A stretch of DNA of 64,000 nucleotides from Anaerolineaceae bacterium (GCA_035542155.1 DATKLX010000229.1:442-64441); one strand, 5' to 3'. Positions 7,047 to 62,577 are shown, counted from the stretch's first letter. Notes: generated by a model not told the origin, from the sequence alone. A program made the numbers and translations.

Positions 7047-7058
7047 AAAAGCCTTCTT

Positions 7059-7712: not shown

Positions 7713-7806
7713 CGTAACCTTGCCTCCAGGTTGGTTTGCTGAAGATAAACAGGGTCAGTATAGCCGAGAGATAAATGAAAGGCAAGGGATCGCCTCTTTT
7801 TTCAAA

Positions 7807-8553: not shown

Positions 8554-8559
8554 GGCTAC

Positions 8560-8799: not shown

Positions 8800-8842
8800 T
8801 TGACTATCCTGAGTTAGATCGAGATACCAAACAAGATCCGGT

Positions 8843-9370
8843 TCAACGGCGGATTAAAACCTGGATTTTTAATTTGCCAAGCGCGAGCATATCGCCATGA
8901 TTCACCGGGTAGTCGACGTTTGGCATGATTTTCTGGCCATTCACACGCGTGCCGTTCGAAGAGCCCAAGTCCATGACGACCACGCGCTGGTTGATGATCT
9001 TCAAGGCAGCATGGAGCCGCGAAACCCCCTGGGCATATGCCTCGTATGGGGAAAGGTCCACATCCGGTAAAATGGGCTGGCCTTCTGCAACCCGGCCAAG
9101 GGTAAATTCAGAGCGGCCGGCGAGGGGAAGAATCTGGCCATTATCGACCATGTGAAGGGAAACCAGGGCATCGATCGCTGAGGATGGTGAGGGTGGCGTG
9201 GTCGCCGGCGGAGGTTGAGGCGTGAGCGGCGTCGAGGGGAGAGCATCCGATTGCGAGCGGATAAAAGCCTGTGTGGACAGCCGCTCGGTGAAAACAAGCT
9301 GCGCCCCACACTCACTGCAAAACAGGGCTCCAGCTATCTCTTGATGTTGGCAATTTGGACAGAGGATCAT
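8843..9370 (-). CDS. zinc-ribbon plus FHA domain protein
   Basis: The N-terminus has a CPNC...CSEC zinc ribbon, followed by a Pro/Thr/Ser linker. The C-terminal FHA domain has FTLGR ... VSRLHAAL ... DLGSSNGTRVNG. It overlaps the upstream gene by 4 bp. Confidence 0.85.
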   Translation of the reverse strand: MILCPNCQHQEIAGALFCSECGAQLVFTERLSTQAFIRSQSDALPSTPLTPQPPPATTPPSPSSAIDALVSLHMVDNGQILPLAGRSEFTLGRVAEGQPILPDVDLSPYEAYAQGVSRLHAALKIINQRVVVMDLGSSNGTRVNGQKIMPNVDYPVNHGDMLALGKLKIQVLIRR

Positions 9371-10848
9371 ACCTTTTTATACTCCGGACCAGACGGCAAA
9401 AGTAAAGCTCGCGTTCCATATTTGATCCGCTTGTCGCCTTCTTTGCTGAATTGTTGGCTGTGATGGACGTGTTCTGCCTCTACCAGGACCGTATGGGCCA
9501 ATTCACGCTCTCCCTGGGAGAGGAGGTGAGTTGCCAGATAATGTAAATGCTTGGTTGCCTGTTTAATCTCCCCGGCAGCCACCTCATTCCGCGCACGATC
9601 CTGCATCCGGTAAAGGGTTAAACGCGATAACGCCTGGACGATTTCATTGGGGGGAGGCTCCGGATCGGAATCAGGCGAAACGGGGCGGACGATCTGAAAA
9701 TTAAACCGCGTATGAGGCACTGACCGGGTTGGGATATCCATTTTTACTTTACCCCGGGCCAGGATTACCTCATCATGGTAATTAGATAGATCTTTTACCA
9801 TAAACTCCAGTAGTATGGATAAGCTTTGAAATTGAACGATATTGCCAACCCGGATCGGGCATTTGGTTGTCAACGGGCCGGATTCGGGCTGAATCCGAAA
9901 CGCGAAGCGCAGCTCAACATTCTCATCTGTTTCGTAATCTAAGGTAACCTGCTCTGCATATATTTTACCAAGGCTGTTGAATTTTTGCTCCAGGAATTTA
10001 TGCAGCTCTTTGGGAGCGGAAACGTACATGCTGGAACCGCCGCTGATACTGGCAATATTATCCAGGAAAGCATCATTCCATTCGTGGCCGATCCCTAGCC
10101 CGCTGATCCCAATTCCCTGCTGGGCAGAGGCTTCTGCCAGCTTCAGGCAGGCATCTTCATCGCCATAGGTGCGGCCATCCGTCAAAAGGATGACGTGGTT
10201 AATGTAAGAGGAGTTCAGATTGCGGCGTACCTGACCGATCCCCTCTTCCAGGCCATGCAGAATTTCAGTTCCGCCACCGGTTTGGAGCATACTTATTTTC
10301 GATTCGATGCGGCTCAAATCCGAAATCCGCGTGGCAGGGATCAGCACTTCGGCTCGATCGCTGAAGGTCACGATGGATATGAGATCCTGAGGCCGCATCT
10401 GGCGAAGCAAGGCAATCGCGTTGGATTTCACCATATCCATCCGCGCTCCCGCCATCGAAGTGGATCGATCCAGAATGAGACAGAGATTGAGCGGAGGAGC
10501 CACATTCACAGCCGGATCTGGAATTGAAGTCAGCTCCATGAGAACGTAAACCAGTTGGGGCTCAGCCAGTTGGGGCAGGCTCGTCCGGCTGTAGAGTGTA
10601 TTGACCGAGATCGAAGGGCTGGAATGTTCCTGAGCGGGCAACATGGCGTCATACTGCCGGCGTTTCTCCGGATTGGAGAGAACATCGTAGGCCTGTTGAA
10701 CCTGCAGAAACAGCTCAGGCGCTTCTGGATCGGGATTGGTGTCCGGGTGTAACTGCCGTGCTGCCTCGAAGTATGCACCCCGGATTTCCTCAGGAGTAGC
10801 ATCTCTGGGTACCCCCAACCGCACGTACAGATTTGAACCACCGATCAT
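9367..10848 (-). CDS. J-domain (DnaJ) - von Willebrand factor A fusion protein
   Basis: The J domain carries an HPD motif (ARQLHPDTNPD ... QAYDVLSNPEKRRQYD). The VWA domain carries a MIDAS DxSxS motif (LILDRSTSMAG) plus LLTDGRT. Confidence 0.85.
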   Translation of the reverse strand: MIGGSNLYVRLGVPRDATPEEIRGAYFEAARQLHPDTNPDPEAPELFLQVQQAYDVLSNPEKRRQYDAMLPAQEHSSPSISVNTLYSRTSLPQLAEPQLVYVLMELTSIPDPAVNVAPPLNLCLILDRSTSMAGARMDMVKSNAIALLRQMRPQDLISIVTFSDRAEVLIPATRISDLSRIESKISMLQTGGGTEILHGLEEGIGQVRRNLNSSYINHVILLTDGRTYGDEDACLKLAEASAQQGIGISGLGIGHEWNDAFLDNIASISGGSSMYVSAPKELHKFLEQKFNSLGKIYAEQVTLDYETDENVELRFAFRIQPESGPLTTKCPIRVGNIVQFQSLSILLEFMVKDLSNYHDEVILARGKVKMDIPTRSVPHTRFNFQIVRPVSPDSDPEPPPNEIVQALSRLTLYRMQDRARNEVAAGEIKQATKHLHYLATHLLSQGERELAHTVLVEAEHVHHSQQFSKEGDKRIKYGTRALLLPSGPEYKKV

Positions 10849-10861
10849 GCAGTATCCCCTA

Positions 10862-11755
10862 TTAATTCGGGTATTGGGCGAGGATTACGCTGATGTTATC
10901 CGGTCCTCCGGCTGCATTGGCCGCTTCCACCAGATTGTGGCAGGCTTTGGATGGGTTTTCTGCGCCGGTGATGATCGAGAACATATCCATCTCAGAGATC
11001 ACTCCCCAGAGCCCATCGCTGCATAACATCAGATAGCCGGGATGAGGCATCAGATAGGTGTTGACATCCGGATCAAAAGGCTCCCCCTGTCCAATCGCGC
11101 GATAGAGCACATTCCGCTGGGGATGAACAGCGGCTTCCTTTTCAGTAATCTGGCCTAATTCCATCAAGCGGCGAACGAGAGAATGGTCGCGGGTCACCGC
11201 CTGCATGCGCCCGTCGGGAAAGATAAAATAAGCCCGGCTGTCGCCCACGTGCGCGATGGTAAGCTGGTCACCCAGGATAAAGGCCGCGGTGAGAGTGGTA
11301 CCACCCCGGGGAGCCAGTCTCAAGACCGCCTGTTGAGCCTCGCGCACGCCCGTCTGGAGGATCTCCTGGAGAGGCTCGCCGCCCATATCAGTACGGATGC
11401 CAATATAGGGCAGGTAAATCTTGCGCATCAGGTAGGTGGACAGGGTCCGCACTGCGACGTTGCTGGCAACCTCGCCGTTTTCGTGACCGCCCATCCCATC
11501 GGCGACCATGAAAATTCCAAAAGGAAGGCTGTTTTCGCTACCGGAAATCATCGAGGACATCGCGAAGAGGCAGTCTTCGTTGTGATCTCTTTGCCGGCCG
11601 ACAGACTGCGCTGTCCCGACAACCAACTGGGGAGGGAAAAACCTGAGCGGTTCTGCAGTGACGGTTTCAAGCTGGTCTGGAGAGAGCGGGGCGGTTTGGA
11701 CACTCTCCGGAAGCTGCTTTTTTCGACCAAATAACCGGGAAATAATATCAATCAC
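10862..11755 (-). CDS. PP2C-family Ser/Thr protein phosphatase
   Basis: The motifs RDHNEDC, VADGMGGH and LCSDGLW, and the C-terminal GGPDNISVIL, are all present. Confidence 0.9.
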   Translation of the reverse strand: MIDIISRLFGRKKQLPESVQTAPLSPDQLETVTAEPLRFFPPQLVVGTAQSVGRQRDHNEDCLFAMSSMISGSENSLPFGIFMVADGMGGHENGEVASNVAVRTLSTYLMRKIYLPYIGIRTDMGGEPLQEILQTGVREAQQAVLRLAPRGGTTLTAAFILGDQLTIAHVGDSRAYFIFPDGRMQAVTRDHSLVRRLMELGQITEKEAAVHPQRNVLYRAIGQGEPFDPDVNTYLMPHPGYLMLCSDGLWGVISEMDMFSIITGAENPSKACHNLVEAANAAGGPDNISVILAQYPN

Positions 11756-11836
11756 GATGATCTCCTCTGCGAAAATGTTAAACCCCGCTTTGCCGCGATG
11801 CTTCGAACCATCTAATTGAATTTATGTGAAAAATGA

Positions 11837-14053
11837 TTATGCAAGGAGGGCATATAGAGTTTTATCCGTAGAACCTACATACAAGATATCATTATACACC
11901 ACTGGGGTACCAGTGATAGGTCCCCCGGTGTTGAATTTCCAGCGCAAGCGGCCGGTGCGGTATTCGAGGCAGTAGAGGTTATTGTCGACCGAGCCGCAGT
12001 AGAGGGAATCTTTATAGATGATCGGGGACCCGGATACCTGGTGATCGGTTTTAAAGCGCCAGATCTCTTTGGCATTTCCAGCGTCCAGGCAATAGATGAA
12101 GCCATCCGCAGATCCAGTAAAGATATAATTATCGACTTTCACTGGGGATGAGATGGAACCCTTACCCATGCGGAAACGCCAGATGACCCACCCAGATTTG
12201 GCGTCCAGGGCATAAAATGAAGTGTCCAGACAGCCAAAAAAGGCCACACCATTGGAGACCAACGGAGATGAAGTGATCCCACGCTTGGCCTTAAACCGCC
12301 ACTTCACCTCACCGCGAAAATCCGCGCAATAAAAATCGCCGCCTTCGCAGCCGAAATAGACATATTCGTTGGTAATGAATGGGGTCGAGCGGACCGCTTC
12401 GGTAGCCTCGACGCGCCAGGCTCGCCGGCTGGAAGCGATATTGACAGCGTGCAGGTAATGATCGTCTGAGCCGACGAACAGGTGACCCTCGGCAACGCGG
12501 GGCGAGCAGCGAATCGGCCCATCCGTGTAATACGTCCAGACCACCTTGCCCGTCCGGATCGAAACCGCGTGGACACGGCGGTCTTCGGATCCAATGAACA
12601 CAGTGTTCTCCGAAACAACCGGGCGGCCGACGATGCCGCCGTCGGTCGCGTATTTCCAGAGGAAATTCCCGTTCGAGCTGTTCAGGGCATAGAGATTATA
12701 GTCGTAGGAGCCGACGAAGAGGATACCATTATCCAGGGTAGGCGTTCCACGGATTTCGTCTTCGCACTCGAACGTCCAGAGCGGCTTGATCGTGTCGGCC
12801 GAGGGACCAATCGCCTGAGTAGTAAACGAAAGGCGAGCCAGCGCCCCGGTCTTGCGCGCCACCATCATCAGAGCATCTTTCATAATCTCAGCGCTCTGGA
12901 AACGGTCCTTGGGCTCATACTGGAGCGCAGTGTTAATTACTGTTTCCAGTTCGGCTGAAACGCCCTGGTTGATTTTGCGGATGGGACGCTCCGAAAAGGT
13001 AAATGGCGGCTCGAGACGGGGGTCTTTGCGGGTAAGCAGGTGATGAAACGTAGCCCCGAGCGCATAGATATCCGCCAGAGGCGTCGCCTCACCGCGGTAC
13101 TGCTCGGGAGGAGAATAGCCTTCCGTTCCAATCATCGTCCCTTTTTGACCCGATTTGAAAATCTTGGCAATCCCAAAATCGACCAAAACAATATGGCCAT
13201 TCTGATTGACCATAATGTTGGAGGGCTTCATATCCCGGAAAATGATCGGCTCCGGTTTGTGGTTATGAAGGAAATGTAAAACATCACACAGCTCGATCGC
13301 CCAGGCGATCACCTGATCTTCGGCGAAGAAGCCAGGGGTCTCGGCCAGGACTGCATCCAGATCCTTCCCATGGATGTACTCTTCTACCAGGTAAGAGCGT
13401 TCATCGTGCGTGAAATAATCGTAAATTCTGGGGATGGCCGGATGGTTTAGGGTGACCAGAATGTTCGCTTCGCGCTCAAAGTTCTGCACGATCGTCTGCC
13501 GAACCAGGGGATCCCTGGCCTGGTTGATCATCTCTTTCACTGCCACCAGTTTGACGACGTTCGGAAAATGGAGATCTCTCGCCCGGTAAACGGACCCCAT
13601 CCCACCGACGCCGATCACTTCCTGGATCGAATATCGGTTTACCAGAATCGAGCCCGCTTGGAGCTGTTGTTCTGGTGGCTGCCCGGAATTGAAGTTTTGA
13701 GTGATATGCTGTGTATCCAGGTTATTCTTCCTTGTACCAGAGATATATGGGTAAGCTCCACAACCTATATTGGCGGGGTTGCCGGACTGGCCGGGTATTC
13801 TATACATCCGGGGTGAGAATAAGTTGAATAAATTATAAGCAGCAATGGTTTCTTTTGCAACCGTTTCACAATTAACAGATATATCAACTGCCTGATCGAG
13901 GTGAAATTCTGGCTTTGCAGAGGGAATTCCGCCTTGCCGATCCCCGGCCTTGAGGGTATGATATTCAGGACCGGTAATTACTCCGGCCACACCAGTTGAA
14001 CCTGCTACAGGACTCATCGATGACGGCAGATTACGAAACCTATCTTTCGCCAT
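11837..14053 (-). CDS. Hanks-type Ser/Thr kinase fused to PQQ-like beta-propeller repeats
   Basis: The kinase motifs are GVGGMGSVYRA, VAVKEM, FRDMKPSNIMV, DFGIAK and SPPEQ. They are followed by about 7-8 repeats of the YxLYALNxxxGxxxW type. I see no TM helix. The start may be 14017 instead. Confidence 0.85.
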   Translation of the reverse strand: MAKDRFRNLPSSMSPVAGSTGVAGVITGPEYHTLKAGDRQGGIPSAKPEFHLDQAVDISVNCETVAKETIAAYNLFNLFSPRMYRIPGQSGNPANIGCGAYPYISGTRKNNLDTQHITQNFNSGQPPEQQLQAGSILVNRYSIQEVIGVGGMGSVYRARDLHFPNVVKLVAVKEMINQARDPLVRQTIVQNFEREANILVTLNHPAIPRIYDYFTHDERSYLVEEYIHGKDLDAVLAETPGFFAEDQVIAWAIELCDVLHFLHNHKPEPIIFRDMKPSNIMVNQNGHIVLVDFGIAKIFKSGQKGTMIGTEGYSPPEQYRGEATPLADIYALGATFHHLLTRKDPRLEPPFTFSERPIRKINQGVSAELETVINTALQYEPKDRFQSAEIMKDALMMVARKTGALARLSFTTQAIGPSADTIKPLWTFECEDEIRGTPTLDNGILFVGSYDYNLYALNSSNGNFLWKYATDGGIVGRPVVSENTVFIGSEDRRVHAVSIRTGKVVWTYYTDGPIRCSPRVAEGHLFVGSDDHYLHAVNIASSRRAWRVEATEAVRSTPFITNEYVYFGCEGGDFYCADFRGEVKWRFKAKRGITSSPLVSNGVAFFGCLDTSFYALDAKSGWVIWRFRMGKGSISSPVKVDNYIFTGSADGFIYCLDAGNAKEIWRFKTDHQVSGSPIIYKDSLYCGSVDNNLYCLEYRTGRLRWKFNTGGPITGTPVVYNDILYVGSTDKTLYALLA

Positions 14054-19393: not shown

Positions 19394-20425
19394 ATGCGTG
19401 AAACGCCGTTGTTAAATAATCGCTATGAACTCCAACAAACCCTGGGTTCCGGGGGGATGGCTGTTGTATACCGGGCCAGGGATCAGATGCTGGAGCGCCC
19501 GGTGGCGATCAAAATCCTGCGTGAAGATTATTCCAGCGACGGCGCATTTCGAGAGCGTTTTCACCAGGAAGCCAAAGCTGCTGCTAACCTCTCCCATCCA
19601 AACATCGTCACCGTCCATGATTTTGGGCTGGATAATAACCGCCTGTTTCTGGTCCTTGAGTACGTTCCCGGGACCGACCTGAAAACGTTGATCAAAAAGC
19701 GAGGCCGGTTTTCGATCGAGGAAGCCCTGAACATTATGATCCAGGCCTGCGCAGGAGTTGGCTATGCGCATCGAGCCGGCCTCGTCCACTGCGACATTAA
19801 ACCCCATAATATCCTTGTCACTCCGGACCAGAGAGTTAAGGTCACCGATTTCGGCATCGCCCGCGCTCTGGCGACCATCCAACCCGATGAGCAGAACGAC
19901 ATTGTTTGGGGCTCACCCCAGTACTTCTCCCCCGAACAGGCCGCCGGCCAGGCCCCCTCGCCCGCCTCGGACGTGTATTCGTTGGGTGTCATCCTCTACG
20001 AGCTACTGACCGGCCAGCTCCCCTTTCATGCCGACACTTCGACCGAACTGGCTCGCATGCACCGCGAGATGGTGCCGCCGCCGCCCAGACAGCTCAACCC
20101 CTCTATCTCGCCAGCGCTCGAACAGATCATTGTGAAAGTCCTTTCCAAAGAACCTTCAGCCCGCTACCGGACCGCGGACCAGTTCGGCAGGGTGCTAATC
20201 AACCTCCTCCCCCAGGAAAACGGCGCTCAATCCAGCGCGGTCACCCAGGCCGCACAGTCCCAGTCATCAGCACCGGAATCTACCTCGCAGCCGGTCAAAG
20301 AAGATCACAGTCTGGATTTTGATTGGGTAACGCTCGCCTTAGGCCTGCTCGCAACGATCGCAGTGGGAGGGCTAATTCCCTACTGGCTTTTCGTCTGGTT
20401 TTCCATCAATCCCATGCCCAGGTGA
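19394..20425 (+). CDS. Hanks-type Ser/Thr protein kinase with C-terminal TM helix (PrkC-position)
   Basis: I prefer the start at ATG 19394 (MRETPLLNNRYEL). Kinase motifs are GSGGMAVVYRA, VAIKIL, HCDIKPHNILV, DFGIA and SPEQ. It ends with a single TM helix. Confidence 0.85.
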   Translation: MRETPLLNNRYELQQTLGSGGMAVVYRARDQMLERPVAIKILREDYSSDGAFRERFHQEAKAAANLSHPNIVTVHDFGLDNNRLFLVLEYVPGTDLKTLIKKRGRFSIEEALNIMIQACAGVGYAHRAGLVHCDIKPHNILVTPDQRVKVTDFGIARALATIQPDEQNDIVWGSPQYFSPEQAAGQAPSPASDVYSLGVILYELLTGQLPFHADTSTELARMHREMVPPPPRQLNPSISPALEQIIVKVLSKEPSARYRTADQFGRVLINLLPQENGAQSSAVTQAAQSQSSAPESTSQPVKEDHSLDFDWVTLALGLLATIAVGGLIPYWLFVWFSINPMPR

Positions 20426-47251: not shown

Positions 47252-48700
47252 TTACCTGGACCTACCCAGCCATAAGGTGATCCCATGAACCACCAGAGCC
47301 AGACCAAACATGCCGATTCCGAGGTTGATGAACAACCGCTGGAACAGCTCGACAGGGACAGGTGGGCCGGAGAGATCCGCGCCAGTTACTGGGATGACGC
47401 CCACAGGAGTGGAACCAGACGGTGCCGCCAGAGTTGGCACAGAGGTATGCGTAGGGGTGGGTGTCGAGGATGGAGTTTCGCCGCTTACCTGGGTGCCGGA
47501 GGTCGGCGTGGGGGTGCGGGAGGGAGTGGGGGTATTGGTGGACGCATTCGTCGCTGTGGTCGTGGGAGTCGGAGTGGCCGTGTTCGTCGGTTCGCTGGAT
47601 GTAGATGTGGCTGTTGGGGTCGGGGTGGGCGTGTTGGTTGGATTGGTTGACGTAGAAGTAGCTGTCGGCGTCGGAGTAAATGTATTGGTAGGAACGCTTG
47701 ACGTGGAAGTTGCTGTTGGCGTTGGCGTGTTAGTCGGAACGCTTGACGTGGAAGTTGTTGTTGGCGTGGGCGTGTTGGTGGCTGTATTGGTTGGAGTGTT
47801 CGTAGGTGTATTGGTCGGCGTGTTTGTGGGCGTAGGCAGCGTTCCCGTGGGCGTCAGGGTCGGTGTAGGGGTAACGGTGTGCGTATTGGTTGGCGTGAGG
47901 GTTGGCGTATTGGTGGGTGTATTGGTCGGAACACCAGGGGTATTGGTCGGTGTATTGGTCGCTGTATTGGTCGGTGTATTGGTGGGAAGACCCGGGGTAA
48001 CGGTTGGCGTATCAGTCGGTGTACTGGTGGGTGTATTGGTAGGAACCTCCGGGGTAACGGTTGGCGTATCAGTCGGTGTACTGGTGGGTGTATTGGTAGG
48101 AACCCCCGGGGTATTAGTCGGAGTGCGGGTATTCGTAGGAGTCGCCGTATTGGTCGGAGTTTTGCTGGGACCATGGGTTGGAGTCCGGGTCGGCGTGAAG
48201 GTAGGTACAGGCGGAGTAGAGCCGCAGTCCGTGTAGGGATACCAGTAATAATCTAGGCCGGCACCCTGATCCAGGAGCGAGTTGGTGCTGACCGGGTCGA
48301 GCAAATTCGCTCCCCAATGGATCTCGACCACCTGATCGCCCGGTCGGACACCTGGCCAGGTTCCATCTACCGAGAACCGGTAACCGTCCGATACTCCCCT
48401 GACATAAGAGTAGGTCTGTGGGGTTCTCAAGTCAGGTGGATTGACTATAAAAGCGGAAAGCTGCAAATCTGCCTTTTGACCTTCCGGCAGGGTCACCGTA
48501 CCATGGACTGTGATCGTCGTCGGGGAGAAATAACAGACTGCATGGTCTTTTTCGTCGAAGGTGACTGCCGGCGGCCCAGCCGCGACGGCGGGCTGGATAA
48601 TTGCTGATAAGGAGACCCCCAGAACCAAGAAGAGGATACTGCCGGTGTAAAAAGTATATGCCAGTACCTTTAGTATTGAACGAAGCTGAGAAGGTTTCAT
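47252..48700 (-). CDS. secreted Pro/Thr-repeat surface protein with C-terminal sorting-signal-like tail
   Basis: It has a signal peptide, a globular domain of about 120 aa and roughly 270 aa of TPTNTPT-type repeats. The tail is IPVTG + 16 aa + hydrophobic helix + GRSR. Confidence 0.8.
47691..47780. repeat. 2 x 45-bp imperfect tandem repeat inside the PT-repeat gene
   Basis: GGAACGCTTGACGTGGAAGTTG(C/T)TGTTGGCGT... is repeated at 47691 and 47736 with a few mismatches. Confidence 0.8.
47994..48107. repeat. 2 x 57-bp near-perfect tandem repeat inside the PT-repeat gene
   Basis: 47994-48050 and 48051-48107 differ at one base (T/C). Each copy encodes [19 protein letters not shown] on the minus strand. 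Confidence 0.9.
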
Positions 48701-48772: not shown

Positions 48773-49711
48773 CTATAACAGGGCAGTTTGCAGTTTATAT
48801 CCGTATGCCTCGTTATTCAGAATCAAGGCCGGATTAGCAGGGTCTTTTTCAAGCTTGCGCCTGAGCAGGTAGATGAGATATTTCAGGCGCTTCCGAGCCA
48901 GAGATGTATCCTCACCCCAGACCTCATTGGCGAGGGTCTCATAATGGACCGTTTTTGGAGCATGCTTGGCCAGGACTGCCAGCACCGCAAACTCTTTAAT
49001 GGTTAGGTGAATAGGACGATTTCTTATGCTGACCTCCATCGTTTCGAGATTGATGATCAGTGGAATGCTGGGAAAAACCAGGGTAGTTTTATGCTCAGGC
49101 GCTTTCGAGCGGCGTAAAACCGCCTTGACCCGCGCAATGACCTCCGCATTGAAAAACGGTTTGGTGACGTAATCATCCACTCCGATCTGCAGCCCTTGTA
49201 CGATATCCTCCTTGCTACCTTTAGCGGATACGATAATCACCGGAGCAGCGGTCATCTGGCGAAGATAATCGAATGTCTGCCAGCCATCCGTTTCGGGCAT
49301 CATCAGATCAAGCAGAATGATGTCGGGTGGAATATCGGCGCATTTTTTGAGAGCTTCAGACGCATTGCTTGCCCCGATGACGTCAAATCCAGCCATTCTC
49401 AAGATCTCCTTGAGCAGGTGAAGCGTTTCCAGATCATCATCGACAATTAACACCCGCTGGCGGGACGGCCCCTGATAGATCACGTCCAGGTCTAATCCAG
49501 GCGAACCGGAATGGCGGGTGGAGGTATTCGATGCAATTGCAGACAAACGAGTCTCAGAACTCACTTTTCCTACCAGCTTTCCAATTTGACGGTTCCGGAT
49601 GAGGGGTTCATTGAGCCAGAAAACAATTTGGCTTTGGTTAGGTAGCTCATTCAAAGATAATATTGTTAAAATAATCTGATCCATGCAGGCGCACGGAACA
49701 GGAATTGCCAA
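48773..49711 (-). CDS. response regulator, OmpR/PhoB winged-helix family, with about 85-aa N-terminal extension
   Basis: The receiver domain has VLIVDDDLE ... IILLDLMMPETDG. The winged helix has LTIKEFAVLAVL ... YGYKL. The start is uncertain (ATG 49711, ATG 49684 or an internal GTG). Confidence 0.8.
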   Translation of the reverse strand: MAIPVPCACMDQIILTILSLNELPNQSQIVFWLNEPLIRNRQIGKLVGKVSSETRLSAIASNTSTRHSGSPGLDLDVIYQGPSRQRVLIVDDDLETLHLLKEILRMAGFDVIGASNASEALKKCADIPPDIILLDLMMPETDGWQTFDYLRQMTAAPVIIVSAKGSKEDIVQGLQIGVDDYVTKPFFNAEVIARVKAVLRRSKAPEHKTTLVFPSIPLIINLETMEVSIRNRPIHLTIKEFAVLAVLAKHAPKTVHYETLANEVWGEDTSLARKRLKYLIYLLRRKLEKDPANPALILNNEAYGYKLQTALL

Positions 49712-49915
49712 TCGGATAAGAATGTTAAGTCGAAAAATACTCCTGTAAATTACCCCGATGATTAGGAGCCTGGTTGTGCCTTACAAAATGCTTACACCCC
49801 ACGCCATCGGACTTAACAAATTTGTAAAGTCAGTATATAACCACAAAATAACTTTGTCAATAACCAATATGGATCTACTTTCTCACCTTAACGATAGGAT
49901 TAAATAATATCCATC

Positions 49916-50689
49916 CTAGATATGGCGAGTGTCCCTTCCAACCGGATTCTGAAGAGAGCCAATCCCCTCCACCGTCGCAACGATCACGTCCCCTGATTGC
50001 AGCGGCGCGATGCCGGCGGGCGTCCCGGTCATGATCGCATCGCCAGGCGATAAGGTCATGATTGTAGAGATAAAAGCAATCAATTGGCGCACGCTGAAAA
50101 CCATATCGCGCGTAGAAGCCATCTGGCGGAGCTCCTGGTTGACGTGGCAGGTCACCATAGCGTCCGCCGGGTCGAATTCCGTTTCAATCCAGGGTCCTAA
50201 TGGGCAAAAAGTGTCAAACCCTTTTGCCCGGGTCCACTGCCCATCTTTGCGCTGCAGATCCCGGGCGGTCACATCATTCCCGACGGTATAGCCAAATACG
50301 TGCTCGAGAGCATCTTCCGGGCGGATCCACCGCCCTGTTTTCCCGATGACGACTACCAGCTCGGCCTCATGGTCTACCTGTTCGGCCTGGGGGGGAAGCA
50401 GGATGGTCTCATCCGGCCCAATCACCGCGGTAGGGGGTTTCATGAAAAGCAGGGGATATTCCGGAACGGCGTTACCCAATTCTTGAGCGTGTTCCGCGTA
50501 ATTCCGGCCGACGCAGATGATCTTGGAAGGCTGCAGCGGGGGCAGCAGGCGGACCAACTCGAGGGGAATTTGAGCTTCCAGGCGGCGAAATTCGCCAAAC
50601 GGCGATCCTTCAAGAGGCCCAACGTGATTTTCATAAATCCAGCCCCACTGCGGCTTTTCTCCGCGGCGCTGAAAACGGACGATGCGCAT
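49916..50689 (-). CDS. fumarylacetoacetate hydrolase (FAH) family protein
   Basis: It has the blocks DHEAELVVVIGK, GYTVGNDVTARDLQ, KGFDTFCPLGPW and TGTPAG. I prefer ATG 50689. Confidence 0.85.
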   Translation of the reverse strand: MRIVRFQRRGEKPQWGWIYENHVGPLEGSPFGEFRRLEAQIPLELVRLLPPLQPSKIICVGRNYAEHAQELGNAVPEYPLLFMKPPTAVIGPDETILLPPQAEQVDHEAELVVVIGKTGRWIRPEDALEHVFGYTVGNDVTARDLQRKDGQWTRAKGFDTFCPLGPWIETEFDPADAMVTCHVNQELRQMASTRDMVFSVRQLIAFISTIMTLSPGDAIMTGTPAGIAPLQSGDVIVATVEGIGSLQNPVGRDTRHI

Positions 50690-55964: not shown

Positions 55965-56808
55965 TCTGGGGACTGGGGATCTCGACCAGGTGCCCTTCGC
56001 GGAGGGAGAACACCCGCCCGGCGCGCGCCGCGGCTTCAGCGCTGTGGGTGACCAGGATCAGGTTTGCGTCCGATGCGGAGACCAGGCGAATGAGCAGGTT
56101 GAGGACCTGTTTCCCGGTCTCCTCATCCAGGTTGCCGGTTGGCTCGTCGGCCAGGACCAGGACCGGCCGGTGGACCAGGGCGCGGACGATGGCGACGCGC
56201 TGCTGCTCGCCCCCCGAGAGCCGGTCCGGATAGGTTTTCTCGCGCCCGGAGAGGCCGACTTCGGCGAGCAGGCCGCGAGCGCGCTCCAGACCGGATGGAG
56301 GCATACTCCCGGTCAATTCGAGGGGCAGGGTTACATTTTCCCAAACCGTCAGGGTTGGGATCAGGTTAAAAAACTGGAAGATAAAGCCGATTGCCTGGCG
56401 GCGGAAGAGGGTGCGCTGGTGATCGTCCAGGGCAGTCAGGTTCAGCCCGTCGATGAAGATCTCCCCGCAGTCGACCCGGTCGATCCCGCTGATCAGGTTG
56501 AGAAGGGTCGTTTTCCCGCTACCGCTTTTACCCAGGATGGCGATGATTTCGCCCCTGGAGACCTGCAGGGTCGTCGCGTGGAGAACCACGCGTGTCTGTT
56601 CGCCCTCCGGGTAGGATTTGCACAGCTCGCTGAGGAAAAGAAAATTCTCGGTTTGGGTACGAGGTCCGAGGGTCGCCTGCCCTGGCGGATAGGCCAGGGA
56701 GAACCGGGCACCGACATCTGCTGGTTCTAATCCCCTGTTAATATTTTGCTTTATACTGATTTTCACTGTACTTTGCTGTTCTCCACTTTTATTCGAACCA
56801 CTGGCCAC
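55954..56808 (-). CDS. ABC transporter ATP-binding protein (LolD/MacB-type)
   Basis: It has Walker A GKSGSGKTT, the signature LSGGEQQR and Walker B LVLADEPT. The true start may be downstream of 56808. Confidence 0.85.
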   Translation of the reverse strand: MASGSNKSGEQQSTVKISIKQNINRGLEPADVGARFSLAYPPGQATLGPRTQTENFLFLSELCKSYPEGEQTRVVLHATTLQVSRGEIIAILGKSGSGKTTLLNLISGIDRVDCGEIFIDGLNLTALDDHQRTLFRRQAIGFIFQFFNLIPTLTVWENVTLPLELTGSMPPSGLERARGLLAEVGLSGREKTYPDRLSGGEQQRVAIVRALVHRPVLVLADEPTGNLDEETGKQVLNLLIRLVSASDANLILVTHSAEAAARAGRVFSLREGHLVEIPSPQNGR

Positions 56809-56858
56809 GAACCACCGACCACTGGCTTTACAATTCTAACGGAAATCCGGTAAACACG

Positions 56859-56866
56859 TGTATAAT
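56859..56866 (+). promoter_or_regulatory. extended -10 element (TGTATAAT) upstream of ssrA
   Basis: TG-n-TATAAT ends 11 nt before the first base of the mature tmRNA. I see no convincing -35. Confidence 0.45.
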
Positions 56867-56877
56867 ATGGATAATCT

Positions 56878-57276
56878 GGGGATGACAGGCTTCGACGGAG
56901 GAGGCTGGTCCCGGATTGCGAGCCGAGAGGTGCCGACCTCGATAAATCAGCACAAACCTTTAAGTGCCAACCGCACGAACTACGCTGCTCTTCCTCTCGC
57001 TGCTTAATCAGTGAGGTGAATCAGCAATGACCTCTGCGGAGGTCACGTCCGCCTACTCCGCTGTCTGACCGGCAGCAGGACCGGGCGTCACAAAGTCAGA
57101 ATGCCGCGCGCGATGTCGCTAAGCGCGCGAAAGAGGGCTTTCGGGTCCGAGCGACTGGCCGGACGTCAATCCCGTTGGCCGGCGGACGTTCCGGCGAAAC
57201 TGAGAGGCCAACTACGCTCGTAGAGATCCGAGGGTCGAATCTTTCGGACGCGGGTTCAACTCCCGCCATCTCCACC
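56878..57276 (+). ncRNA. ssrA: tmRNA (transfer-messenger RNA, one-piece)
   Basis: The 5' end GGGGATGACAGGCTTCGACGG pairs with the 3' end CATCTCCACC (acceptor stem with a G3:U pair). The T-arm is GGACGCGGGTTCAACTCCCGCC. The internal tag ORF GCC AAC CGC ACG AAC TAC GCT GCT CTT CCT CTC GCT GCT TAA (56966-57007) encodes ANRTNYAALPLAA. Confidence 0.9.
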
Positions 57277-57312
57277 TTAACTACGATCTTGTCCACAAGG
57301 TTAGTTCCACTC

Positions 57313-57337
57313 AAAAAACGGCGAGAAGCCGTTTTTT
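57313..57337 (+). terminator. intrinsic terminator after ssrA
   Basis: AAAAAACGGC-GAGAA-GCCGTTTTTT. Confidence 0.8.
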
Positions 57338-57443
57338 GATTTCATCGGAGATCCTTTGGTTTAGAGACATTTTCCATGATTGTTCTTTATCATGGAAACG
57401 GTTACAATCAAATTGTCCTTTTCTATTAAAAGCGACGGTGGGG

Positions 57444-60400
57444 ATGGAAAAAATCCAGTACATCGATTTTGACATCCGGATCGAACGGCGCGAGGATGCA
57501 TATCGAGCTGTGGTTTTGAATTCACCGGCTGGAGAGGCAGAGACTCTTTTTCAACTTCCCTGGCTTGGCTCTGACCTGGATAACCTGATCCGCCGGATGG
57601 GCCATTTGAGGGGTGGAATTCGCAGGCTGGAATCTCCTGAAAGTGAAACCGCTCGCATTTTTGGCTCAGGCCTGTTCAACGCATTATTTTCCAATGCCGT
57701 TCGTTCCTGTTTCGAAAGCTCCCGCGCTCGCTTGAAAGAAGGCAGCGGCCTGCGTCTGCGCCTTCGCCTCTCCGAAGTCCCAGAATTATTGGACGTTCCC
57801 TGGGAATTCTTATACGATCCAGAGGCAGACCGGTTCCTGATCCTCTCCGTGGAAACACCGCTGGTCCGGTATATCGACCTGCCGCACGTTGCAGGTCCAT
57901 TGCAGGTCCAGCCGCCGCTCGAGATCATAGCGGCGATATCTTCCCCCCGAGATTACCGCCCGCTGGATGTTGCGCGGGAGTGGGATAAACTCAAGCAGGC
58001 GCTCAGCGATCTTGAAAAGAACGGCCTGGTCCGCATGCACGGCCTGGAGAGTGCGACTCTTGCGAATCTGCATCGCCAGTTACGCCGGCAAGCCTGCCAT
58101 ATTTTCCATTTTATCGGCCATGGAATCTTTGATGAGGCAGCCCAGGATGGGATCCTGCTTTTCGAGGATGAGGGTAACCGGGGCCGCCCGGTTACCGGGC
58201 GAGAATTGGGCACACTGTTTTACGATTATCGCTCGTCGATGCGATTGGTGATGTTGAATGCCTGCGAAGGGGCGCGGACATCCCGGTCGGATCCCTTCGC
58301 TGGGGCTGCGCAAAGCCTGGTTCAAAAAGGCATCCCGGCGGTCATCGCCATGCAATTTGAAATCTCTGAAGAAGCTGCGATCACCCTGGCGCATGAATTC
58401 TACTCGGCCCTTTCTGAAGGCTATCCTGTGGATGCGGCCCTTTCCGAAGCACGAAAATCGATCTATACCCAGAGCGCAGAATATACTTCGAATGTGGAAT
58501 GGGGAACCCCGGTTCTGTACATGCGCTCGCCAGATGGGGTTATCTTTGATATCCAGGCTCACCCCTCTCCTCTTGAGGTTAGAGAACCTCCGATTCAACC
58601 AGATCTTACGGCAGAAAAGCTGAACCGGCTGTATGATGATGGCCTGGAAGCCTACGTGCTGGGCCAATGGGAAAAAGCCTGCGCGGCTTTCGAAGCGGTT
58701 TTAAAGCTGAACCCGAGTTATCAGGATGCATCCGCCAGGCTGGAAGAGTGCCAGAAAAAAGCCCGCCTCGTCGCCTTACAATCCAAGGCCAACCTGGCGA
58801 TTGAGGGTATGAACTGGGATGAGGCTGTTCAGATCCTGGAAGAGCTGGTCTCCCTTGACCCAACCTACGGCCAATCAGAATTGCTGTTAGCCAACACCCG
58901 CAAGCAGAAGCAAATCTCCGGGCTGTATGCACAGGCAAAACGCCTGCATCATTCCGAAAAATGGGAGGCTGTGCTTAAAATACGCGACCAGATCCGCACG
59001 CTCGAGCCACAGCCTGCCGACCCGGACAATCTATTTCCTGCGGCTCAAGCCGCGCTGGACGAGATCCAGAAACAATCCAGGTTGGAAAAAACTTATAACT
59101 TGGCTTTGAGGGAGATTGCGGCCGGGAACTGGGATAACGCTGCTCAACTGCTCTTTGAAATCCAGTCCATCCAGCCAGGTTACCGCGAATCCGACCGCCT
59201 TGCTCAGATCGTCGATACCAACCGGAAAGAGACCATCGAGCGGAAGCAGCGCCAGGAGCAGGTCACTCTTTTATACGCGCAAGCCGCGGAACATGCCCGA
59301 TCCCGCCGCTGGGAAAAAGCGCTGGCAATCATGGAGCAAATCACAAAGCTTGAGCCAGCATTTCCCGATTCTCAAGGAATCGCCAGCCGCGCCCAGATAG
59401 AGCTTGAGCAATTGCAACAGAAAGCGGAGACGCAAAAACGGGTCATCGCCCAAATTGTCCATAAAAACAAACCAGAGAACTTTGAACCGGTGTCCTCCGA
59501 TGAAATTTCTACAGGTATCTCTCAACATAAAGGGATAAATGTAATCCCTGAAAACTTCTCGAATTCCTTTGATTTCAATATATTCTTTAAACAGGTAAGA
59601 TCAAGGTTATCTACGTATGACCATTCGTTCGAGGGATTTATAAAGCAACTGAATCGGAATCAGAAAATTCTTATGGTGGGAATTGTATTGTTGGTTTTGA
59701 CTCTGGCGGCAGGATTGGTTTTATTCATATTAGGTGCGGGGGGAAGTTTTCTCAAACCCGCCAATCCAGGTGTTACTGGTTATAGCTCATACATTTACTT
59801 TGTGTCAGACCAGGATGGGAAGAAAGAGATTTTCAGCCTCGTAAATGGGAACCGGATCCAGGTCACACACACTCCGGGTCAATTCCAAAGCTGGAATCCG
59901 GTTATATCCCCAGACGGAATGTATTTCACGTCCAATCGCAACGGAAAACAAGAAATTTATCTCCTCGACAACCAGGGGATAATGCAGGTTACGCATACAC
60001 CCGGGAATTTTCAGAGCTGGAATCCGAATTACGCTCCAGATAGAAGTCTGTTGTTTACGTCTGACCGATCCGGCGGGAAAGAGGTTTATAGGCTGGATCA
60101 AAAGGGAACAACCAAAGTCACTTCAAGCTCTCAAGGAGAAAGCTGGGATCCATTTGTCTCCCTAAATGGCGAAATCTTTTTTACTTCGAACCGCAGCGGA
60201 AAACGTGAGGTTTATCGGCTCAACAATAATGGTGTATCAAGATTGACAAACACACCAGGGAAATTCGAAAGCTGGGATCCCTTCGTAGACGATGATGGGA
60301 CTATATATTTCACATCTAACCGAGACGGTACCGTAGAAATTTTTAAACTTGAAAAAGGGCAGACTGTTCAAATGACAAATACTCCCAATGGTAAAAATAG

Positions 60401-60554
60401 CTGGGGAGTCCTCGATGTTAGCAATGGCACGATGATATTCTCTTCCGATCGAAACCAGAAGTCTGAAATATTTCTCATGGATATGAAAGGGGTAATACAA
60501 ATAACTCATACAAGAGGTGACAGGGTAAGCTGGTCAGTCAGCAGCGAGGATTAA
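57444..60554 (+). CDS. CHAT (caspase-like) protease - TPR - TM - PD40/TolB-like beta-propeller protein
   Basis: I prefer ATG 57444. The CHAT His block is HIFHFIGHG and the Cys block is LVMLNACEGA. About 5 TPR-like units follow. The TM helix is ILMVGIVLLVLTLAAGLVLFILGAGG. Six repeats of the YFTSNRNGKQEIY (PD40) type complete the protein. Confidence 0.8.
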   Translation: MEKIQYIDFDIRIERREDAYRAVVLNSPAGEAETLFQLPWLGSDLDNLIRRMGHLRGGIRRLESPESETARIFGSGLFNALFSNAVRSCFESSRARLKEGSGLRLRLRLSEVPELLDVPWEFLYDPEADRFLILSVETPLVRYIDLPHVAGPLQVQPPLEIIAAISSPRDYRPLDVAREWDKLKQALSDLEKNGLVRMHGLESATLANLHRQLRRQACHIFHFIGHGIFDEAAQDGILLFEDEGNRGRPVTGRELGTLFYDYRSSMRLVMLNACEGARTSRSDPFAGAAQSLVQKGIPAVIAMQFEISEEAAITLAHEFYSALSEGYPVDAALSEARKSIYTQSAEYTSNVEWGTPVLYMRSPDGVIFDIQAHPSPLEVREPPIQPDLTAEKLNRLYDDGLEAYVLGQWEKACAAFEAVLKLNPSYQDASARLEECQKKARLVALQSKANLAIEGMNWDEAVQILEELVSLDPTYGQSELLLANTRKQKQISGLYAQAKRLHHSEKWEAVLKIRDQIRTLEPQPADPDNLFPAAQAALDEIQKQSRLEKTYNLALREIAAGNWDNAAQLLFEIQSIQPGYRESDRLAQIVDTNRKETIERKQRQEQVTLLYAQAAEHARSRRWEKALAIMEQITKLEPAFPDSQGIASRAQIELEQLQQKAETQKRVIAQIVHKNKPENFEPVSSDEISTGISQHKGINVIPENFSNSFDFNIFFKQVRSRLSTYDHSFEGFIKQLNRNQKILMVGIVLLVLTLAAGLVLFILGAGGSFLKPANPGVTGYSSYIYFVSDQDGKKEIFSLVNGNRIQVTHTPGQFQSWNPVISPDGMYFTSNRNGKQEIYLLDNQGIMQVTHTPGNFQSWNPNYAPDRSLLFTSDRSGGKEVYRLDQKGTTKVTSSSQGESWDPFVSLNGEIFFTSNRSGKREVYRLNNNGVSRLTNTPGKFESWDPFVDDDGTIYFTSNRDGTVEIFKLEKGQTVQMTNTPNGKNSWGVLDVSNGTMIFSSDRNQKSEIFLMDMKGVIQITHTRGDRVSWSVSSED

Positions 60555-60629
60555 TAGAAGATCTTCCTTCTGGGGGGTCATGAAACCATTTGTTATGTTA
60601 GATAAGCGTCGAATTGGCAAAACACCTGC

Positions 60630-60658
60630 TTGACTCCCGCTTCGTGGCGAGGTATAAC
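60630..60658 (+). promoter_or_regulatory. sigma-70-like promoter upstream of VOC gene
   Basis: TTGACT - 17 nt - TATAAC lies about 70 nt upstream of ATG 60727. An AAGGAAGG RBS is present. Confidence 0.45.
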
Positions 60659-60726
60659 ATAAGTCGAACATACGTTCTTTATTGTGGATATAAATTCGAC
60701 ATTTTGGATCTTTAAGGAAGGTGATC

Positions 60727-61119
60727 ATGTTTCAGCCAAAATCAGCATTCAGCGGTTTTTCGGTGGATAACCTTGCTAAGGCCAGGAATTTTTACAGCCA
60801 GATCCTCGGCGTGGAGGTATTGGAAAACGGAATGGGACTGGAGCTTCATTTGCCGGGCGGCGCAACGGTGTTCGTCTATGAGAAACCAAACCACGTGCCG
60901 GCCACTTTTACCATTTTGAATTTCCAGGTGGAGGACATCGACGAGGCGGTGGAAGCGCTCACCCGGCGCGGGGTCAGGTTCGAACGCTATGAGGGAGAAT
61001 ACGGGACAGACTCGAAGGGCATCACCCGCGGAATTGCCAGGAATCAAGGCCCAGATATCGCCTGGTTCAAGGACCCGGCCGGGAATTTTCTGGCAGTGCT
61101 GCAGAGTCCAGAGAGGTAA
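60727..61119 (+). CDS. VOC (glyoxalase/bleomycin resistance) family protein
   Basis: It is a protein of about 130 aa with the beta-alpha-beta-beta-beta pattern. [10 protein letters not shown] and [12 protein letters not shown] are typical VOC blocks. Confidence 0.75.
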
Positions 61120-61122
61120 AGA

Positions 61123-61389
61123 ATGGGCCAGTTCTTCGATGTAAAGTGGCCCTGGATCGAAGCCAGCCACGGGCAGCGGGATGTCCTGCTCTCCGGGCTG
61201 AACGATGCGGATCTGGTTTTCGTACCGGGAGAGCAGCCTATCCTGCGCCCGACCGGCAACACCTTTTCCCCCGGCGATCAGGTAGATATTTACGTCCAGG
61301 CGATGATGGTCTTTTTCGGGAAGGCGGTGGTGTATTTCCGGACAATGAATAAGCCGCTGCCTCCCAGCATCGAGGAGTACATTGCCTGA
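61123..61389 (+). CDS. hypothetical protein (88 aa)
   Basis: The ORF starts 3 nt after the VOC stop and abuts the convergent rlmI stop. I recognise no family. Confidence 0.35.
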   Translation: MGQFFDVKWPWIEASHGQRDVLLSGLNDADLVFVPGEQPILRPTGNTFSPGDQVDIYVQAMMVFFGKAVVYFRTMNKPLPPSIEEYIA

Positions 61390-62577
61390 TCATTCTTTTT
61401 GACAAATCAACCCTTTCAAATAGGCCCCTTCCGGGAAGCTCAGCAGCACGGGGTGATCCGGGCCCTGCTCGAGGTGGGCGACGATGCGCGCGTCGACGCC
61501 GGCGTCCTGCGCTGCCCCGGCGACGATCTTCTGAAACAACTCTGGGGAAATTCCCCCCGAGCAGGAGAAGGTGAACAGCGTACCGCCCGGGTTAAGCAGC
61601 TTGAGCGCCAGCAGGTTGATGTCCTTGTAGCCGCGCGCCGCCCGTTCGGCCTGGGCAGAGGTGGGAGCGAACCTGGGCGGATCGAGGACGATCAGGTCGA
61701 AGGAGCGCGCCTGGTCGCGGAAGGAACGCAGGACGTGAAAGACGTCGCCCTCCAGCCAAGCAGCCCGGTCTCCGGGAAATCCGTTCAGGCGAACGTTTTC
61801 CGCAGCCAGCGCCAACGCATCTGTGGACGTATCCACCGAGAGGACCGTCCGCGCTCCGCCTCTCAGCGCCGCCAGGGTAAACCCACCGGTGTAAGAAAAA
61901 CAGTTCAACACGGATTTTCCGGCCGCCCAGGGGACCAGCCTGGTCCGGTTGGCCCGCTGATCGAGGTAAAACCCGGTCTTATGGCCTCGCTTCACATCGA
62001 CCAGGAAGCGCAGCCCATTTTCGCAGATTTCGGCCCGCTCGGGCGGTTCCGCGCCGCGCAGCGGACCCACCCGCTCGGGGAGGCCCTCCAGCCGCCGGAC
62101 ATCCACGTCCGAGCGCTCGTACACCTGGTCCAGGCCGGTTTCCTCAGCCAGGATTTCTACCAGGACCTCCTTCCAGGCTTCAGCCCCGGCAGAGAGGATT
62201 TGGGTCACGAGTAAACCGGGATAGCGGTCGACGATTAACCCGGGCAGGCCGTCCGATTCGGCATGAACCAGGCGGTAGGCATCCGTTTCCCCTGGGGGGA
62301 CTACCTCGTTCCGGTAACGGATGGCATCCTGGATGCGGCGGCGAAAAAAATCCGCGCCGACAAGCTCGTCTTCTCGGGTGGTCCACAACCGGGCGCGGAT
62401 TTGCGAGGCCGGGCTGTAGGCTGCCCGGCCCAGGAATTCTCCGCTCTGGGCGCAGACGGAAACAGTCTCGCCAGGTACAGGATCCCCTTCGACACGCTGG
62501 ATCGAGCCTGAGAAGATCCAGGGATGGCGCAGCCGGATGGATTTTTCCCGCCCCGCCTTGAGAATAATCCTGGACAT
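61390..62577 (-). CDS. rlmI: class I SAM-dependent rRNA (cytosine-C5) methyltransferase, RlmI-like (PUA + MTase)
   Basis: The N-terminus has KSIRLRHPWIFSGSI, DGLPGLIVDRY is present, and the SAM fold has VLNCFSYTGGF ... LDPP. Confidence 0.8.
   Translation of the reverse strand: MSRIILKAGREKSIRLRHPWIFSGSIQRVEGDPVPGETVSVCAQSGEFLGRAAYSPASQIRARLWTTREDELVGADFFRRRIQDAIRYRNEVVPPGETDAYRLVHAESDGLPGLIVDRYPGLLVTQILSAGAEAWKEVLVEILAEETGLDQVYERSDVDVRRLEGLPERVGPLRGAEPPERAEICENGLRFLVDVKRGHKTGFYLDQRANRTRLVPWAAGKSVLNCFSYTGGFTLAALRGGARTVLSVDTSTDALALAAENVRLNGFPGDRAAWLEGDVFHVLRSFRDQARSFDLIVLDPPRFAPTSAQAERAARGYKDINLLALKLLNPGGTLFTFSCSGGISPELFQKIVAGAAQDAGVDARIVAHLEQGPDHPVLLSFPEGAYLKGLICQKE

Follow-up and report, generated by a model that had tools for sequence, protein, structure and literature searches.

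The gene described here lies at positions 57444 to 60554 (plus strand) of a 64,000-nucleotide stretch of Anaerolineaceae bacterium DNA (GCA_035542155.1 DATKLX010000229.1:442-64441), referred to below as the window. It encodes a 1036-residue protein with an N-terminal CHAT protease domain, an array of tetratricopeptide repeat (TPR)-like hairpins, a single transmembrane (TM) helix and a six-bladed PD40 β-propeller. An earlier reading of the sequence alone (the original prediction) had assigned these four parts to one uninterrupted open reading frame (ORF) downstream of ssrA and proposed a stand-alone device with its sensor outside and its protease inside the cell.

Domain architecture, predicted topology and integrity of the gene

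The ORF runs from 57336 to 60554 on the plus strand without interruption. ATG 57444 was taken as the real start codon because GGTGGGG stands upstream of it, all homologues align to the protein from residue 1-4, and the deposited form likewise comprises 1036 residues (HVN56257.1, 'MAG TPA: CHAT domain-containing protein [Anaerolineaceae bacterium]', on a 64.7-kb ENA contig).

Residues 1-372 (57444-58559) form a caspase-like CHAT domain of clan CD, predicted to be cytoplasmic. Pfam matched CHAT (PF12770) over residues 77-355 with an E-value of 1e-35 and 123.9 bits (cutoff 24), covering model positions 7-283 of 289. The AlphaFold2 (AF2) model of residues 1-370 had a predicted local distance difference test score (pLDDT) of about 93, and Foldseek matched the head with a probability of 1.0 to SAVED-CHAT (8tl0), Csx29 (7zoq) and DdvA (8rot). 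In CHAT proteins, the contexts GHG and xAC(E/x)G are the counterpart of SHG and QACxG of the caspases. The corresponding motifs, HIFHFIGHG and LVMLNACEGA, start at residues 219 and 268, and in a profile search against the PDB the head motifs aligned with HILHFIGHG and LVVLNAC of the SAVED-CHAT protease 8tl0. In an alignment of 120 homologues His222, His226 and Cys274 were invariant; of these, His226 (codon 58119-58121) and Cys274 (codon 58263-58265) align with 8tl0 as the catalytic pair. This is a genuine CHAT protein with a caspase/hemoglobinase-type fold and an intact dyad, and its head is a predicted cysteine protease.

Five extended TPR-like helical hairpins occupy residues 389-672 (58608-59459), predicted to lie on the cytoplasmic side. 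They were recognized by TPR_2 and related Pfam models and were modelled by AF2 at a pLDDT of about 95, each consisting of a short helix of 14 residues and a long helix of 26-37 residues. All five turn motifs quoted in the original prediction (LNPSYQDA, LDPTYGQS, LEPQPADP, IQPGYRES and LEPAFPDS) are present in the repeats, and the family consensus of the array shows a conserved W..A...L..L..P.Y.DA repeat. The array is a probable substrate-binding or oligomerisation scaffold. It is followed by a juxtamembrane tether at residues 673-737 (59460-59654) with a pLDDT below 50; in the full-length AF2 model residues 673-730 were disordered.

The single TM helix spans residues 738-767 (59655-59744), with AF2 placing a helix at residues 738-764. 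Only one stretch of the Kyte-Doolittle profile exceeded a mean of 1.6 (scanning segments starting at residues 739-754, with a peak of 3.0), and the profile revealed neither an N-terminal hydrophobic segment nor a signal peptide, the N-terminus being hydrophilic. Of 129 family members with one TM helix, 111 have more lysine and arginine on the CHAT-proximal side. Note that a folded N-terminal region of 740 residues that lacks a signal peptide must remain cytoplasmic. The presence of one hydrophobic segment, the lack of a signal peptide and the family-wide positive-inside bias all argue for an N-in/C-out topology, with the head predicted in the cytoplasm and the propeller outside the membrane.

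Residues 771-1036 (59754-60551) constitute the PD40 (TolB-type) propeller, which would be extracytoplasmic in this topology. Pfam matched PD40 with an E-value of 4e-20, and six PD40 repeats of 42-43 residues stand in register at residues 771-1027, followed by a closing strand. AF2 modelling of residues 733-1036 on a deeper alignment showed a single long helix and six blades closing into a propeller (pLDDT 92, predicted TM-score 0.80). Foldseek comparison with TolB propellers gave TM-scores of 0.71-0.73 at a root-mean-square deviation of 2.9 Å over 277 columns. Thus, the reading frame, Pfam and AF2 agree on the four parts that had been proposed, and the dyad context, the helical repeats, the single hydrophobic helix, the six blades and the topology without signal peptide were all borne out.

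The original prediction had also noted a compositional break and raised the concern of a chimera. The break is real: near residue ~650, GC content drops from about 0.55 to about 0.43 and GC content at third codon positions (GC3) from about 0.60 to about 0.44. The GC content of the N-terminal part equals the mean of the window (0.56), and nowhere in the window is GC lower than in the C-terminal part. A step this sharp would be expected of an artefact, either a chimera created by the assembly or a CHAT gene fused to a low-GC TolB-like gene and now decaying. However, an orthologue from another sample (L085, an independent Logan assembly; 85% amino acid identity) has the same architecture, fusion and GC step, and its flanks match the window, with the ssrA 3' end and a terminator upstream and a glyoxalase gene downstream. 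Moreover, the synonymous divergence (dS) between the two genes is uniform (0.22-0.29), and the ratio of non-synonymous to synonymous divergence (dN/dS) is 0.055 for the CHAT domain, 0.24 for the TPR array and 0.29 for the propeller, indicating purifying selection on all folded domains and hence on both halves of the gene. In addition, at least 10 other CHAT-TPR-TM-PD40 proteins exist. L085 and the dN/dS ratios refute an assembly chimera or pseudogene, and we regard the probability of any such artefact as negligible. The shared fusion, GC step and flanks, the uniform dS and the low dN/dS ratios together indicate a gene that is real, old and functional.

The tether behaved differently from the folded domains. 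Its dN/dS ratio was 0.87 (about 0.85 for tether and TM helix), with 62% identity to L085 and an indel of 41 residues, suggesting that it evolves nearly neutrally. In P0003, the next relative, identity is 68% as far as residue 669 and similarity is lost beyond, right where GC3 falls. Because homology to P0003 stops at this point, the GC step marks an ancient recombination junction where the TPR array ends. A second low-GC patch of the window, at 49001-50000 (GC 0.47), contains an ORF (48773-49711, minus strand; GC3 0.54) for a response regulator with Response_reg and Trans_reg_C domains.

A large family with exchangeable ectodomains

Among the candidates scored in a search with the full-length protein, more than 3,600 were relatives, most of them ~45% identical over residues 1-670 and divergent thereafter. 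With residues 1-672 as the query, an exhaustive search returned 6,777 clusters (50% identity) at E ≤ 1e-30. We sampled 84 loci with complete genes from species-representative genomes: 54 of these genes encoded a CHAT domain, one TM helix and an ectodomain, 5 encoded multipass proteins, whose C-termini had no Pfam identity, and 25 encoded soluble proteins. The CHAT-1TM-ectodomain form also accounted for 80 of 121 further representatives. Phyla with family members include Chloroflexota, which dominate the form with CHAT plus TPR, as well as Acidobacteriota, Actinomycetota, Verrucomicrobiota and KSB1.

Clustering divided the ectodomains into many groups that are unrelated to one another, among them PD40, WD40, FGE-sulfatase, SBP_bac_5, PA14, CBM9, TPR and 3-keto-disaccharide-hydrolase/LamG as well as ConA-like or lectin-like forms; these are ligand-binding types. 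Tandem paralogues with differing ectodomains are found at L002 (PD40, then WD40) and L056 (three copies), and several members per genome also occur. A head conserved in thousands of proteins is thus combined with a membrane and ectodomain part that is exchanged, a pattern of input/output modularity. The original prediction had treated the protein as an unrecognised one-off. This did not hold, as the gene is one ordinary member of a large family of CHAT-TM-ectodomain proteins that is already catalogued, down to the annotation of this protein as a CHAT protein, and that is unstudied.

The membrane and propeller part was also used as a query by itself. Note that this search omitted the query protein itself, so that absence from its results is no evidence of absence. 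The nearest relatives without a CHAT domain were single-pass proteins with an N-terminal Ser/Thr kinase (Pkinase) or TIR_2 head. The kinase-TM-PD40 proteins P0121, P0127 and P0137 bear the same 'THTPG..SW.P' PD40 cassette, and the TIR_2-TM-PD40 proteins P0124-P0126, P0129, P0130 and P0132 have the same PD40 subtype. In BLAST comparisons with the window propeller, the kinase-linked propeller of P0121 was 45% identical (218 bits) and represents the nearest non-orthologous relative; CHAT-linked propellers were 42-44% identical and TIR-linked propellers 40-45%, except for P0132 at 36%. Since a kinase-linked propeller is as close as the CHAT-linked and TIR-linked copies, the ectodomain can be viewed as an exchangeable input module and the head as the output. 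The idea of an outside sensor coupled to an inside protease thereby gained comparative support, both from ectodomain swapping and from the PD40 cassette on TIR and kinase heads.

In the TIR-TM-PD40 proteins the TIR domain would be inside and the propeller outside, resembling an inverted Toll-like receptor (TLR). Locus L087 contains two such genes in tandem (6099-7916 and 8001-9452), the first with a GC content of 0.39 in a locus of GC 0.53. No description of the CHAT-TPR-TM-PD40 family, or of the occurrence of its cassette on TIR and kinase heads, was found in the open-access literature, and Kaur et al. 2020 make no mention of CHAT or PD40.

A broader and doubtful reading of these data, to which we give little weight, is that Anaerolineae and other, mostly multicellular or soil bacteria possess a large repertoire of single-pass surface receptors in which swappable cassettes (PD40, WD40, FGE-sulfatase, lectin-like and SBP) are joined through recombination to any of three outputs (CHAT, TIR and Ser/Thr kinase). 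Such receptors might perform outside-in pattern recognition in the manner of TLRs or receptor-like kinases, triggering proteolytic or NADase-based death or immune signalling, and the window gene would be one member of the repertoire.

Genomic context and the search for partners

Upstream of the gene, and outside the device, lies ssrA (56878-57277, plus strand), which encodes transfer-messenger RNA (tmRNA) with the tag ANRTNYAALPLAA; it was identified by ARAGORN and by Rfam (RF00023, 163 bits). Inverted-repeat analysis located an intrinsic-terminator-like hairpin at its end (57311-57339, plus strand), with a perfect 12-bp stem, a 5-nt loop and a T-run. The hairpin is kept in L085, with a different loop. 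This hairpin and T-run indicate that the CHAT gene is a separate transcription unit. Between terminator and start codon stands a perfect 10-bp palindrome, TTTCCATGAT-N8-ATCATGGAAA (57371-57398), followed by TACAAT (57403-57408; whole element 57371-57408, plus strand); the palindrome lies ~45 nt 5' of the ATG. At the matching site of L085 the palindrome has 9 bp, with both arms changed. The palindrome and TACAAT could be a candidate operator, or a hairpin in the 5' untranslated region or leader, together with a -10 box of the CHAT gene. A promoter scan upstream of the gene found nothing above chance.

The adjacency to ssrA, to which the original prediction had drawn attention, is thus correct as a description of this locus. 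It has no family-wide meaning, as a complete tmRNA stood beside a family member only in the window's own contig (L001) and none was found at the 84 other family loci scanned. Given that L085 retains the ssrA 3' end, the adjacency is specific to this lineage. An ssrA-targeted genomic island was rejected: there was no direct repeat of the ssrA 3' end, and hence no attachment repeat, in 56800-61400, the flanks lacked an integrase and synteny was the same in the orthologue.

The genes around the CHAT gene encode a MacB-type ABC transporter, the tmRNA, a glyoxalase, an 88-residue protein, an RlmI-like methyltransferase and LigA. Neither the 88-residue protein nor a neighbouring protein of 306 residues had a Pfam or PADLOC match. 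PADLOC produced only generic, domain-level matches near the gene (a response regulator and an rRNA-type methyltransferase). There was no gasdermin gene among the neighbours, which argues against a gasdermin-protease system, and no sigma factor gene was adjacent. No cas-like genes were present within ±10 kb of the CHAT gene, and the 64-kb window contained neither a CRISPR-like repeat array nor a second CHAT gene. The claim that the gene stands alone, with no gasdermin, NTPase, CRISPR or PADLOC-type partner nearby, was thus upheld. An all-against-all comparison of three genes on each side at the 84 loci likewise revealed no general partner gene; for example, the genes downstream at L002 and L004 (485, 517 and 484 residues) are mutually unrelated.

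Several recurrent neighbours were nevertheless found at subsets of the family loci. A Trypco1 (PF19493) gene, of the type defined in PMC7159879, lies immediately upstream and on the same strand of six family members: L042 (7543-7938), L059 (5421-5864), L046, L048, L063 and L084. Among these, the CHAT proteins of L042, L046, L048 and L063 have only ~12 residues after the TM helix, that of L059 has ~230, and no TM helix was detected in that of L084. In three loci, a clan-CD C25-like/TPR protein of ~730 residues is encoded directly downstream of the CHAT gene. Proteins of this C25-like type have ~480-730 residues, weak Peptidase_C25 similarity, SHGMG and FACYGAG motifs and a variable TPR tail; their genes lie directly downstream of CHAT-TM genes or beside a CHAT cluster at L019 (10554-12743), L065 (11595-13790), L002 (12151-13608) and L090 (1604-3637). 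The C25-like protein could be a substrate or a second protease; its family has more than 5,900 members, often without CHAT linkage. Finally, large proteins with DUF7379, TCAD7 and DUF7363 domains adjoin CHAT-TM genes in two Verrucomicrobiae genomes (L051, 10034-13486, and L052, 10553-13585, both on the minus strand). A CHAT domain was additionally detected in the L051 protein, and none in that of L052.

These associations bear on the possibility that the protein is a conflict or immune device, in which the ectodomain detects a phage, a competitor or a damaged envelope and CHAT triggers abortive infection or cell death, either directly or via a second protease. CHAT is the effector of known defence systems, the head has a PADLOC SAVED_CHAT match (4e-14) and 8tl0, Csx29 (7zoq) and DdvA (8rot) as structural neighbours, the PD40 cassette is shared with TIR heads, and some relatives adjoin the Trypco1 adaptor (the six loci above), a TCAD7-CHAT protein or a C25-like protein. 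Paralogue formation and ectodomain diversification also resemble those of immune receptors. In contrast, the window contains no Trypco1, C25-like or TCAD7-CHAT gene, and no PADLOC defence homologue surrounds the CHAT gene, which lies outside any defence island in conserved synteny with core genes. Its propeller is under purifying rather than diversifying selection (the dN/dS ratio of 0.29 given above), and a check for phage or plasmid origin found only distant CHAT matches and no close relatives. We therefore consider an immune function of this gene unlikely. The defence role suggested by the original prediction found no support at this locus, and a non-immune role, as exemplified by HetF (see below), is equally possible.

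The distant matches include MT836801.1 (965-2062), an 8.7-kb unannotated 'Bacteriophage sp.' sequence from human faeces. The CHAT domain it encodes shares 43% identity with residues 1-368, and the sequence may be a bacterial contig that was misbinned. Elsewhere in the window, ~700 nt with a 12-nt periodicity (47502-48205, GTATTGGTCGGT-like on the plus strand) lie inside a minus-strand ORF (47252-48700). Read on the minus strand, the repeat would give a Thr/Pro/Asn-rich tetrapeptide repeat, and the 482-residue protein lacks a Pfam match and is hydrophobic in an N-terminal segment. A minus-strand run of four genes (8843-14053) comprises ORFs of 175 (with an N-terminal CxxC...CxxC), 493, 297 and 738 residues. 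The 738-residue ORF has tblastn similarity to a Ser/Thr kinase at 12788-13246, and a second kinase-like match lies at 19664-20197 (plus strand).

A candidate receptor-protease and its relation to known systems

Our preferred reading, to which we assign a probability of about 0.5, is that the gene encodes a one-component, bitopic inner-membrane receptor-protease. The propeller would recognise a ligand in the envelope or outside the cell, for instance a peptide, a glycan or a fragment of the wall. Receptors clustered or re-oriented by the ligand would bring the cytoplasmic CHAT-TPR heads together, and the joined heads would cleave, at a specific site, one substrate or a few in the cytoplasm that are recruited by the TPR array and encoded elsewhere in the genome. 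For caspase-type enzymes, proximity or oligomerisation is the usual trigger of activity. Precedents are HetF, a membrane CHAT protease that acts on a specific substrate, and a proposed receptor-like metacaspase (both below). The output may be regulatory or lethal, and the role immune or developmental.

Several observations weigh against a receptor-protease. No ligand, substrate or partner was identified, and no neighbour, by Pfam or PADLOC, connects the gene with a pathway. The long tether is disordered, variable in length and apparently near-neutral, which argues against allosteric transmission; its length and disorder fit clustering or mere anchoring, and rigid allostery less so. Furthermore, the CHAT domain of HetF, a membrane protein of the cyanobacterium Anabaena, complements a mutant by itself, so that an ectodomain need not gate the activity of such a head (PMC9457339).

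The exposed position of the long tether between head and TM helix would also allow the protein to act as a self-processing anchor, in which CHAT, acting in cis or in trans, severs the protein's tether and so frees either the CHAT-TPR head or a membrane stub. DdvA of Myxococcus xanthus (8rot) offers a precedent, as its CHAT active site faces the linker of the partner protomer and autoproteolysis has been proposed; the cleavage is unproven (PMC11506125). The present tether has no conserved site, as its dN/dS ratio, its identity to L085 and the indel indicate, and the topology of DdvA is opposite. We therefore regard self-processing as very improbable. DdvA otherwise resembles the present protein in being single-pass, in having TPR and CHAT domains and a flexible juxtamembrane linker, and in its structural match. 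It differs in that its TPR-CHAT part is periplasmic and a zinc anti-sigma domain cytoplasmic, the TPR precedes CHAT, the active site is incomplete and the protein is paired with a sigma factor of the extracytoplasmic function (ECF) class; none of these traits is found here. A DdvA-type anti-sigma factor was rejected, since Pfam detected no anti-sigma domain, CHAT is on the N-terminal, cytoplasmic side and no sigma factor gene is adjacent.

The soluble CHAT proteases SAVED-CHAT (8tl0) and Csx29/TPR-CHAT craspase (7zoq) share with the present head the CHAT fold and aligned His/Cys motifs, and are activated by an attached sensor module; for SAVED-CHAT, the title of PDB 8tl0 names a filament as the activated form. 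In contrast to the window protein, their sensors are cytoplasmic (SAVED binding cA3, and gRAMP-RNA), they have no TM helix or ectodomain and they are encoded in CRISPR/CBASS operons. SAVED-CHAT identity was excluded, as Pfam found no SAVED domain and the PADLOC SAVED_CHAT match was confined to the CHAT part (model positions 130-271 of 498). A type III-E Csx29 craspase was likewise excluded by the domain order, CHAT here preceding the TPR array, and by the lack of cas-like genes and of a CRISPR array. TolB of the Tol-Pal system has a six-bladed PD40 propeller as well. Here, however, the TolB N-terminal domain and signal peptide are missing, the propeller is tethered to the membrane after an internal TM helix and identity is only ~21%; TolB identity was dismissed because TIGR02800 reached 71.2 bits against a cutoff of 343, with the propeller alone matching.

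Closer parallels in layout come from membrane proteins. The kinase- and TIR-PD40 proteins have the TM helix and six-blade cassette (40-45% identity) in the same N-in layout; they differ in having a kinase or TIR domain as output in place of CHAT-TPR, and are also uncharacterised. Receptor-like membrane metacaspases (Peptidase_C14-TM-CHASE2 and similar) have been noted bioinformatically (Asplund-Samuelsson et al. 2012; PMC3501461). They likewise combine a caspase homologue inside, TM helices and a receptor domain outside, with C14 instead of CHAT and with other ectodomains, and are equally uncharacterised. The original prediction recognised no described system with this TM plus PD40 architecture; this was overstated, as HetF is a studied protein of similar overall layout and receptor-like membrane metacaspases had been noted in 2012.

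HetF (Alr3546 of Anabaena PCC 7120) has a cytoplasmic CHAT domain, one TM helix and periplasmic TPR; it is located at septa, interacts with FtsI and breaks down PatU3, and for complementation the CHAT domain by itself suffices (PMC8406250, PMC9457339). By analogy, and as the main alternative to a receptor-protease, the window protein might be a housekeeping or developmental protease with a constitutively competent head, in which the ectodomain is no sensor and only tethers the enzyme to an envelope site (septum, wall or partner enzyme), where it trims a regulator of division or differentiation. The shared order of CHAT, TM helix and outside repeats, the position of the gene among housekeeping genes in conserved synteny, and a floppy tether suited to an anchor are consistent with this, as is the match of the NCBIfam HetF equivalog model (NF045509) to the CHAT region (residues 73-362 only; E-value 7e-19). 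However, this match reached 67.6 bits against a cutoff of 1200, no better than a generic CHAT domain, which rules out a HetF orthologue. The domain order also differs, with TPR inside and PD40 outside, and the many paralogues, interchangeable ectodomains and cassette shared with TIR and kinase heads look more like a receptor repertoire. Thus, a HetF-like role appears rather improbable, and the receptor-protease remains our preferred reading.

The studied prokaryotic CHAT and caspase-type proteases that we found are either cytoplasmic, with intracellular sensors, or membrane proteins of another layout (HetF, a developmental enzyme, and DdvA). The window gene is an intact, clear-cut representative of a class that is both very large and uncharacterised, and in which a membrane-tethered caspase-like head is combined with swappable binding domains outside. 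If the ectodomain gates the protease, this would constitute a direct outside-to-inside route of proteolytic signalling in bacteria and would be relevant to how receptor-coupled caspase and TIR signalling arose. If the ectodomain is a mere anchor, the protein would be another HetF-like, envelope-localised protease, an ordinary finding. HetF is the nearest studied layout: in both proteins a CHAT domain with a catalytic Cys forms the cytoplasmic N-terminal part, there is a single TM helix and repeats lie outside, and both are encoded by stand-alone genes of filamentous multicellular bacteria. In HetF, the outside part is TPR, there is no cytoplasmic TPR array and the substrate, PatU3, is cyanobacterial, whereas the window protein carries its TPR array inside and a PD40 propeller outside.

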